Source of the DNA: Escherichia coli
GTDB taxonomy: Bacteria; Pseudomonadota; Gammaproteobacteria; Enterobacterales; Enterobacteriaceae
Assembly (NCBI RefSeq): GCF_003334385.1
Contig: NZ_QOWN01000176.1
Strand: one strand, 5' to 3'
Length of the DNA stretch: 476 bases
Positions 1 through 476 of this stretch are shown one piece after another. A program made the translations under genes and the position numbers. The notes below the pieces were generated by a model. The model searched no databases and had not been told where the DNA came from. It saw only the letters and a list, made by a program, of their open reading frames with translations. Within the stretch, counting starts at the first letter, position 1. Each line of letters opens with the position of its first letter.

Positions 1-107
1 TCAACCGGCCCTTCGCTGATGGCATCGATCACACTCAGCAACTGCGTGGACTTCAGGTTGTCCTTCGCTTCGCGCGGGGTATGCCCCTTACTGCTTCCTT
101 TACCCAT
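1..107 (-). CDS. J: Tip attachment / host specificity protein J (central tail fibre), N-terminal 35 codons only; gene continues beyond position 1
   Basis: Hand translation of the minus strand from ATG (complement of 105..107) gives MGKGSSKGHTPREAKDNLKSTQLLSVIDAISEGPV with no stop before the window edge. This matches the N-terminus of lambda gpJ as I recall it. It lies directly downstream of gene I with a 60-nt spacer, as in lambda, and is preceded by GGAG with an 8-nt spacer. It is absent from the ORF track because it is truncated by the window. Confidence 0.85.
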   Translation of the reverse strand, partial: MGKGSSKGHTPREAKDNLKSTQLLSVIDAISEGPV

Positions 108-119
108 TCCTCACGCTCC
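108..119 (-). promoter_or_regulatory. Ribosome-binding site (Shine-Dalgarno) for J
   Basis: Minus-strand sequence immediately upstream of the J ATG reads TGGAGCGTGAGGA-ATG. GGAG (complement of 116..119) sits 8 nt before the ATG, which is good spacing; a second purine-rich GAGGA abuts the start codon. Confidence 0.6.
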
Positions 120-120
120 A

Positions 121-149
121 TAAATGACAAAACCGCCCGCAGGCGGTTT
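121..149 (-). other. Intergenic stem-loop followed by a U-rich tract on the sense strand (candidate weak intrinsic terminator or mRNA structural element between I and J)
   Basis: Perfect inverted repeat: 130..137 aaaccgcc and 142..149 ggcggttt, with a 4-nt loop at 138..141. On the minus (sense) strand this reads AAACCGCC-TGCG-GGCGGTTT followed by TGTCATTTA, i.e. a 5-bp GC core extended by A-U pairs, then an interrupted U-tract (complement of 121..129). Confidence 0.4.
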
Positions 150-167
150 CACATAAAACATTTTGCA

Positions 168-476
168 TCAGCGACCAATCACCACAACCTGACCACCGTC
201 CCCTTCGTCTGCCGTGCTGATCTCCTGAGAAACCACGCGTGACCCCACGCGCATTTCCCCGTACAGAACAGGCAGAACATTGCCCTGGGCAACCATGTTA
301 TCCAGTGAGGAGAAATAGGTGTTCTGCTTACCGTTATCCGTTGTCTGTGTACGGGGAGTTCTGGCTTTCGGTGCCAGCATCTGCGCCACACCACCGAGCA
401 CCATACTGGCACCGAGAGAAAACAGGATGCCGGTCATACCACCGGCCCCAATGGCTGCCCCCCATGCTGCAAGGGT
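168..476 (-). CDS. I: Tail assembly protein I (lambda gpI-like), C-terminal 102 codons plus stop; 5' end lies beyond position 476
   Basis: The 89-aa ORF in the track (MTGILFSLGASMVLGGVAQMLAPKARTPRTQTTDNGKQNTYFSSLDNMVAQGNVLPVLYGEMRVGSRVVSQEISTADEGDGGQVVVIGR) matches the C-terminus of lambda gpI as I recall it. The same frame stays open upstream of the ATG at 435..437 to the window edge, encoding ...TLAAWGAAIGAGG before MTGIL, so that ATG is an internal Met and not the true start. Stop codon TGA is the complement of 168..170. Confidence 0.92.
   Translation of the reverse strand, partial: TLAAWGAAIGAGGMTGILFSLGASMVLGGVAQMLAPKARTPRTQTTDNGKQNTYFSSLDNMVAQGNVLPVLYGEMRVGSRVVSQEISTADEGDGGQVVVIGR

Follow-up and report, generated by a model that had tools for sequence, protein, structure and literature searches.

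Stem-loops between the tail genes I and J are already known as putative terminators through the annotation of related phages. GenBank 'terminator' features are given for phages 434 (OL657226, 15466-15485) and Ayreon (MF807953, 14895-14934), and putative terminators are recorded for HK97 (NC_002167, 15107-15129) and N15 (AF064539, stem_loop 15307-15330, 'putative rho-indep.'). The records of lambda (RefSeq) and lambda imm434 carry no terminator annotation at I-J, which suggests that the site is near prediction thresholds. No experimental characterisation of the I-J hairpin was found in the searchable literature, and the Term-seq, Rend-seq and ribosome-profiling literature yielded nothing usable on lambda I-J. 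Intercistronic hairpins that stabilise the message are found in polycistronic mRNAs, e.g., the REP elements. Morons are reportedly units of promoter, gene and terminator situated between phage late genes, as Juhala and colleagues are said to have described them in 2000. By definition they are additional genes, each equipped with a promoter and a terminator of its own and expressed from repressed prophages (PMC3594210). Read-through of terminators mediated by Q is established in lambdoid late operons (PMC7547250). Here we present a set of features for the I-J hairpin in one stretch of Escherichia coli DNA, together with its counterparts in other phages and its rank among the terminator-like sites of lambda.

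The window, i.e., the whole stretch of 476 nt that was analysed, is from E. coli assembly GCF_003334385.1 (contig NZ_QOWN01000176.1). It is the reverse complement of a lambda-type tail gene I/J junction, and the sense strand is the minus strand of the window. It matches Escherichia phage PhiR30_1 at 100% identity and lambda 15136-15611, where I and J are annotated, at 99.6%; a lambda coordinate is obtained as 15136 + (476 - window position). For comparison, 80 loci around lambda-type J were taken from IMG/VR, plus about 300 more around J of the HK97, Stx, SPN3UB and T1 types, and the I stop and J start of each locus were placed by tblastn. For conservation, 60 different haplotypes of the lambda type were compared, all with a spacer of 60 nt. 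One haplotype (L018), which combines a loop insertion with a tail deletion and gave three spurious variable stem columns, was left out. For alignment with MAFFT, one loop base was trimmed in the two rows with 5-nt loops. The features of the window are as follows (window positions; variability among the 60 haplotypes).

168..476, minus strand: 3' part of tail assembly gene I (end ...VVVIGR), from the list of open reading frames and the identity to lambda
170..168, minus strand: stop codon TGA of I
167..108, minus strand: whole I-J spacer, 60 nt
150..167, minus strand: upstream part of the spacer, 18 nt, UGCAAAAUGUUUUAUGUG; 8 of 18 positions variable
149..142, minus strand: 5' arm of the hairpin, AAACCGCC; 0 of 8 positions variable
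141..138, minus strand: tetraloop UGCG, UNCG type, with a C-G closing pair; 3 of 4 positions variable
137..130, minus strand: 3' arm of the hairpin, GGCGGUUU; 0 of 8 positions variable
129..121, minus strand: post-hairpin tract, UGUCAUUUA
121..132, minus strand: U-rich tract counted from the GC core, UUUUGUCAUUUA; tail score T = 3.81
119..116, minus strand: Shine-Dalgarno sequence GGAG of J, 8 nt before the ATG; invariant
1..107, minus strand: 5' part of J, MGKGSSKGHTPREAKDNLKSTQ..., with the ATG at 107..105

The inverted-repeat search returned arms at 130-137 and 142-149 (8 nt each, 100% complementary, 4 nt apart). The sense RNA at 149..130 reads AAACCGCC-UGCG-GGCGGUUU, a perfect 8-bp hairpin that is followed by UGUCAUUUA and whose lambda equivalent lies at 15463-15482. 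The stem is composed of a 5-bp GC core (CCGCC/GGCGG) and three A-U pairs. The U-tract is interrupted (UUUU-G-U-C-A-UUU), and the first three U of UUUUGUCAUUUA double as pairing partners of the AAA in the 5' arm. A preliminary description of the window, made from its letters, had reported this hairpin with all eight pairs, the short core and the interrupted tract, and had placed it about 20 nt after the I stop and about 22 nt before the J start; all of this was recovered, the hairpin beginning 18 nt past the stop and ending 22 nt ahead of the start. The expectation that it should fold better than shuffled sequence was borne out as well: positions 152..121 fold at -15.2 kcal/mol, whereas their shuffled versions average -6.87 (z = -3.17; 3 of 200 as good), and the entire stop-to-start spacer folds at -21.0 (z = -2.69), with 1 of 200 shuffles as good. 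Regarding the covariance models of Rfam 15, the best match overlapping the hairpin in the window was STnc130, at 19.8 bits versus a gathering cutoff of 55 (E = 1.6), and no family was found in the gene-occupied I-J gaps of other loci.

Several minor features were noted elsewhere in the window. The coding region of I holds a 16-nt inverted repeat (88% complementary, 365-380 and 403-418) and two matches to a terminator-like pattern (446-429 and 287-273, minus strand), which may be due to chance; the window has two such matches, and the shuffle mean is 0.4. The GGAG of J is annotated as ribosome_binding_site at the same place in the records of 434 and lambda imm434. An open reading frame of 25 codons (130..53, minus strand) begins in the post-hairpin tract, overlaps the start of J out of frame and contains, at 121..119, the AUG of the conserved motif UUUAUGGAG; no evidence for its translation was found.

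The hairpin stem is under purifying selection. Within the 60 haplotypes, none of its 16 positions varies. In the remaining spacer 18 of 44 positions (41%) do so (Fisher p = 0.0013 against the stem), and in the 150 nt of I and the 150 nt of J next to the spacer 58 of 100 third-codon positions are variable (p = 9e-6); these tests are column-wise, i.e., columns are taken as independent and phylogeny is ignored. The loop is free, with UGCG, UCCG, UCAG, UGCU and UCUG all represented. A frozen stem with a free loop and free flanks is the pattern predicted for a functional helix. It is at odds with a non-functional relic, i.e., a terminator that outlived its cargo gene (moron), or a palindrome that arose by chance, which is very improbable. 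What speaks for such a relic is that the lambda gap contains neither a gene nor a promoter-like site, that relatives carry cargo at the same place, and that some relatives lack any hairpin. The compensatory changes in the stem, the nearly constant presence of a hairpin in empty gaps of 41-100 nt and its presence in virulent T1-like phages, which have no lysogeny, all tell against it, and the relic reading is already disfavoured.

The pairing, rather than the sequence, is maintained beyond the lambda type. The hairpins of the lambda type, of locus L025, of the HK97/N15 type and of a SPN3UB relative can be aligned base for base, and each is followed by a U-run and AUGG(A/G). The stems read GAGCCGCC...GGCGGCUU in the L025 variant, (A/G)GCCACC...GGUGGCU in the HK97/N15 type and GAGCCAUC...GAUGGCUU in the SPN3UB relative; the hairpin families are presumably homologous. 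When 36 distinct hairpins of the lambda, HK97/N15 and SPN3UB-relative types were compared, 93.8% of the cells were paired, versus at most 57.3% in slid registers, and the inner seven pairs failed in 3 of 252 cells. Both-sided changes were seen in three of the eight pairs of these 36 rows (A-U/G-C with a G-U intermediate, G-C/A-U and C-G/U-A), whereas most single changes in the stem are G-U wobbles, which are paired in the sense RNA only. The compensatory changes represent few independent events, since the haplotypes are related prophages and the both-sided swaps separate lineages. With that reservation, the pairing is kept across lambdoid phages with compensatory changes, the outcome for which the preliminary description had proposed looking. 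The hairpin of the Stx type has its own U-A/U-G/C-G series and is 98.8% paired.

Between I and J, a hairpin with a U-run directly behind it recurs in several forms that are unrelated in sequence (sense strand of the respective locus).

22-23 nt before the ATG of J: form of lambda and Fels-1
16-17 nt before the ATG: form of HK97 and N15, GCCACC-UUCG-GGUGGC followed by U6-U8
41-65 nt before the ATG: form of the Stx phages, ACAGGCAUCC-UCCG-GGAUGCCUGU followed by UGUUUUUG (consensus ACAGGCA(U/C)CC-UCCG-GG(A/G)UGCCUGU, then UGUUUUUG)
Between I and J of SPN3UB relatives: two hairpin forms
Directly after the I-like gene: form of the virulent T1-like Drexlerviridae, CCCCGCC-UUG-UGCGGGG followed by U6

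Among the unique I-J gaps of 41-100 nt, 112 of 115 score as a terminator on the sense strand and 3 of 115 on the antisense strand, whereas none of the 19 gaps of 40 nt or less does so. The length of a gap beyond about 40 nt is thus essentially a sense-strand terminator-like element. A terminator acting on the antisense strand was ruled out for the lambda type, in which 0 of 38 gaps score in that orientation.

The pre-J hairpin is dispensable in some relatives. It is absent from the 9-nt gaps of SPN3UB-type loci (74 loci) and of a Mannheimia phage, and from two classes of Stx-type gap (342 and 851 nt). Presence and absence are found side by side in the SPN3UB type: one locus (L255) has a 9-nt gap and two others (L259 and L260) have gaps of 43-44 nt, with J N-termini 88-100% identical, and little is present in the longer gaps besides a hairpin with its U-run and a new Shine-Dalgarno sequence. 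In T1-like loci (L343, L337, L350 and about 37 others, with gaps of 63-83 nt), a TATAAT-like motif is located approximately 8-10 nt past the strong hairpin and U6; this order suggests a terminator-promoter pair, with J as a separate transcription unit. A Stx-type gap of 238 nt (L085) contains two convergent terminator-like hairpins (611-649 and 784-807), an antisense one directly after I (CCCGCAG...CUGCGGG, then U10 on the antisense strand) and a sense one before J. They flank approximately 130 nt of unassigned content without an Rfam family, which may be a small transcription unit.

The distances listed above also bear on a role of the hairpin in the initiation of J translation, which the preliminary description had offered as one of three options. 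The hairpin would be extended by a lower helix (U-rich upstream sequence at 161..152 with 122..113) over the Shine-Dalgarno sequence, or would insulate the ribosome-binding site and leave a U-rich landing platform. In its favour, the minimum free energy fold of the whole spacer adds 10 pairs to the hairpin and covers the GGAG, the predicted pairing probability of which is 0.97 for lambda taken in isolation. In the lambda, HK97/N15 and L259 types, moreover, UUUAUGGAG comes immediately 3' of the hairpin. The lower helix, however, carries uncompensated C-A and A-C mismatches in 15 cells, and its pair 11-57 shows all four combinations. Predicted pairing of the Shine-Dalgarno sequence ranges from 0.25 to 0.99 across haplotypes, and the extension is missing from the folds of the N15 and Stx types. 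The spacing between hairpin and ATG is 16-17 nt in HK97/N15, 22 nt in lambda and 41-65 nt in the Stx form, and the T1-like hairpin adjoins the I stop rather than J. Modulation of J translation is accordingly improbable, and that option of the preliminary description was not upheld. An operator that sequesters the Shine-Dalgarno sequence was rejected as a candidate, the lower helix being without covariation and missing in other families.

Insertions into the I-J gap have occurred repeatedly, and at least eight unrelated inserts are seen there. In relatives that retain the pre-J hairpin (Fels-1, L025 and HK97), the inserts are situated between the I stop and the hairpin, and their right-hand junction is the 5' edge of the hairpin. 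In Fels-1, an opposite-strand sodC (NCBIfam NF007628, 225 bits) lies between I and a hairpin of the lambda type. An AT-rich insert (GC 0.36) separates I from the hairpin in locus L025 and contains, at 784-1134, a lipoprotein-like open reading frame of 116 amino acids whose product carries a lipoprotein-type signal peptide (MNKTILFCTIIALTGC...); the frame, present also in L037, L042 and L081, gave no match to NCBIfam. The HK97 record lists gp22 ('moron product') and gp23 ('reverse moron product') and then the 'putative terminator', and further loci of the HK97 type hold unrelated inserts of 316-750 nt. The gaps in Stx-type prophages measure 235-260, 342 or 851 nt, the last with a reverse-strand sodC. 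A reverse-strand gene for Cu,Zn superoxide dismutase (sodC) was thus observed twice in the slot, at 1214-1738 of locus L086 (Fels-1) and at 540-1199 of locus L183. These are two different prophage lineages; that of Fels-1 (Salmonella) retains the lambda-type pre-J hairpin and the 851-nt Stx-type class (E. coli) does not.

Comparison with the definition of a moron gives a mixed picture for lambda. The hairpin sits at the position of the terminator downstream of the cargo in L025, Fels-1 and HK97. The 60-nt gap of lambda, on the other hand, holds no plausible open reading frame that could count as an extra gene, and no sigma-70-like promoter was found anywhere in the window. Without a gene or a promoter-like site, the lambda gap is an empty slot with a terminator, not a moron. 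A small RNA ending at the hairpin, after the model of the Hfq-bound prophage sRNAs of Tree et al. 2014, was discarded, since those lie at the PR' moron site and not at I-J.

The concentration of inserts raises the question of an element that acts as DNA, either as a linker for the exchange of I and J modules or as a palindromic site for protein binding or recombination that attracts cargo. The gap is a hotspot, the junctions fall at the 5' edge of the hairpin wherever it is kept, and J is frequently exchanged as a host-range module. What is conserved, however, is pairing and not sequence, with three both-sided swaps; a cruciform formed by the other strand would be mismatched at the many G-U wobbles, the loop is asymmetric, and the adjoining T-run is strongly strand-asymmetric. 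Unrelated sequences fill the role in other families. We give very little credence to a DNA-level element.

For an estimate of terminator strength, a discriminant of the type of d'Aubenton-Carafa et al. 1990 was run with ViennaRNA energies; the values are approximate. The threshold is only approximate too, with false negatives, as tR' was missed. The I-J hairpin, at the tail score given above, reaches d = 18.6 (>0). A uniform scan of the lambda genome returned eight positive sites on the rightward strand (about one per 6 kb), a density at which a chance match in a given 60-nt gap would be expected in roughly 1% of cases.

Lambda 19613-19632, rightward: terminator-like site after lom
Lambda 40597, rightward: terminator-like site between ren and ninB, which we take to be tR2
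Lambda 6101-6114, rightward: terminator-like site in the D-E gap
Lambda 15466-15479, rightward: core of the I-J hairpin, d = 18.6
Lambda 4487, rightward: terminator-like site within C
Lambda 35807, rightward: terminator-like site
Lambda 7164-7179, rightward: terminator-like site in the E-FI gap
Lambda 18920-18935, rightward: terminator-like site in the J-lom gap

On the opposite strand there was a hit at the location of oop RNA, antisense to the 3' end of cII. The I-J hairpin ranks fourth of the eight rightward sites, below the oop-RNA and ren-ninB sites, and the earlier judgement that it was a weak terminator candidate at best appears somewhat pessimistic. A simple terminator scan of the window does not call the hairpin, because G-U pairs (GUG/UGU) lengthen the stem and displace the tail window; the same scan does call the identical stem in Fels-1, which has another upstream context, as well as the equivalent hairpins of L025, HK97 and the Stx phage. 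Regarding the usual features of an intrinsic terminator, the site has a GC-rich stem-loop whose stem and loop fall within the usual ranges of about 5-14 bp and 3-8 nt, a 3' U-rich tract (borderline), an orientation that agrees with the transcription unit, and pairing that is kept. Five gaps between nu1 and lom exceed 40 nt, and four of them hold a terminator-like hairpin; the I-J site is therefore one of few terminator-like marks inside an operon traversed by Q-modified polymerase. Both E and J are bracketed by terminator-like hairpins with U-runs in the lambda late operon.

The position inside an antiterminated operon is also the starting point for a pure mRNA stability or processing element, another of the three options. 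Such an element would block 3'-to-5' exonucleases after endonucleolytic cuts in J and stabilise the upstream tail-gene message relative to J within the Q-antiterminated transcript, with no useful release of polymerase. Q-modified polymerase is expected to pass the hairpin (PMC7547250), the lambda U-tract is interrupted, a stable stem with a UNCG cap suits an exonuclease barrier, and similar hairpins flank the major capsid gene E (D-E and E-FI gaps), where differential stability makes sense. A barrier, however, has no need of a U-run, yet one is present directly 3' of the hairpin in every family and on the sense strand only, and the U-runs of the HK97/N15 and T1-like forms are uninterrupted (U6-U8). 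The conservation of this needless U-run disfavours stability as the sole function, which we regard as unlikely. The two roles are compatible, and stability is more a co-function of termination than a true rival to it.

Termination is thus the best supported of the three options of the preliminary description, as judged by the sense-strand U-run in 112 of 115 gaps, the recurrence in unrelated families and the records of related phages; the translational option did not hold. We interpret the element, with somewhat better than even confidence, as a Rho-independent terminator-type hairpin of moderate predicted strength, which Q-modified polymerase would pass and at which unmodified polymerase would be partly stopped. 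In the sense-strand RNA, three A-U pairs would lengthen the 5-bp GC core, with C(UGCG)G as the cap and the U-rich tract 3' of the stem. During lytic growth, Q-modified polymerase would transcribe through it. Unmodified polymerase, coming from the prophage or from stray or cargo promoters, would be terminated in a moderate fraction of cases, and J and the genes downstream would be insulated. Once transcribed, the hairpin would probably also act as a barrier against 3' exonucleases. It would mark the downstream border of the cargo slot, and in lambda, where the slot is empty, the terminator would stand there alone. The modestly new point is a comparative rule, by which a putative I-J terminator appears to border the cargo slot across unrelated families.

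For lambda itself the consequence is modest, i.e., one more probable internal terminator in the antiterminated late operon and a filled gap in the RefSeq annotation. The comparison points to an element that is selected and not a relic, and that sets a fixed limit on the right-hand side of a slot repeatedly used for cargo; in prophages of Salmonella and EHEC, this slot contains genes associated with virulence, e.g., sodC. This suggests that late-operon terminators may help to decide where cargo settles without activating tail genes in lysogens. For phage engineering, the site offers a natural insertion point upstream of J that is predicted to be insulated. It is possible, though we propose it only tentatively, that an I-J terminator is a selected, near-universal rule of J-type siphophage tail operons, which insulates a cargo harbour and attenuates even Q-modified transcription. 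The basis of near-universality would be the existence of at least four sequence-unrelated forms, in temperate as well as virulent phages, and the gain or loss of the element as a unit between close relatives. If this were true, an insulated 'safe harbour' upstream would explain the accumulation of cargo such as sodC in the I-J gap, and partial attenuation of Q-modified transcription would determine how much of the large, low-copy J protein is made.

Like the characterised lambda terminators t-oop, tR2 and tR', the I-J hairpin has a GC-rich stem-loop with a U-run 3' of it on the transcribed strand, but its U-run is shorter, it is located deep in a Q-antiterminated operon, and its termination is predicted only. 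Its score is lower than those of the oop-RNA and ren-ninB sites (18.6 versus 29.6 and 25.0). With morons it shares a location like that of the moron terminator in HK97, L025 and Fels-1, in a gap that is a recurrent cargo site; unlike them, lambda has neither an extra gene nor a promoter-like site there, and the hairpin is also found in virulent T1-like phages. The likeness to intercistronic stabiliser hairpins such as REP lies in a stable stem-loop between cistrons and a possible block to 3' exonucleases, whereas the I-J hairpin has no Rfam match and consistently has a U-run, which a pure stabiliser does not need. The stems of 434 and Ayreon are identical to that of the window, with a UCCG instead of a UGCG loop and a G instead of an A in the tail; their terminator features are pipeline predictions, and that of 434 covers the GC core and the first six bases of the tail. 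The hairpins of HK97 and N15 share with the lambda type the position directly before J on the same strand, the GC stem, the UNCG-type loop, the U-run and the AUGG that follows, and their stems align with that of lambda base for base, with compensatory swaps between them. They differ in a 7-bp stem, an uninterrupted U-run and 16-17 nt to the ATG (8 bp, interrupted and 22 nt in lambda), and the slot that is empty in lambda is filled in HK97 by two annotated morons, upstream of the terminator.
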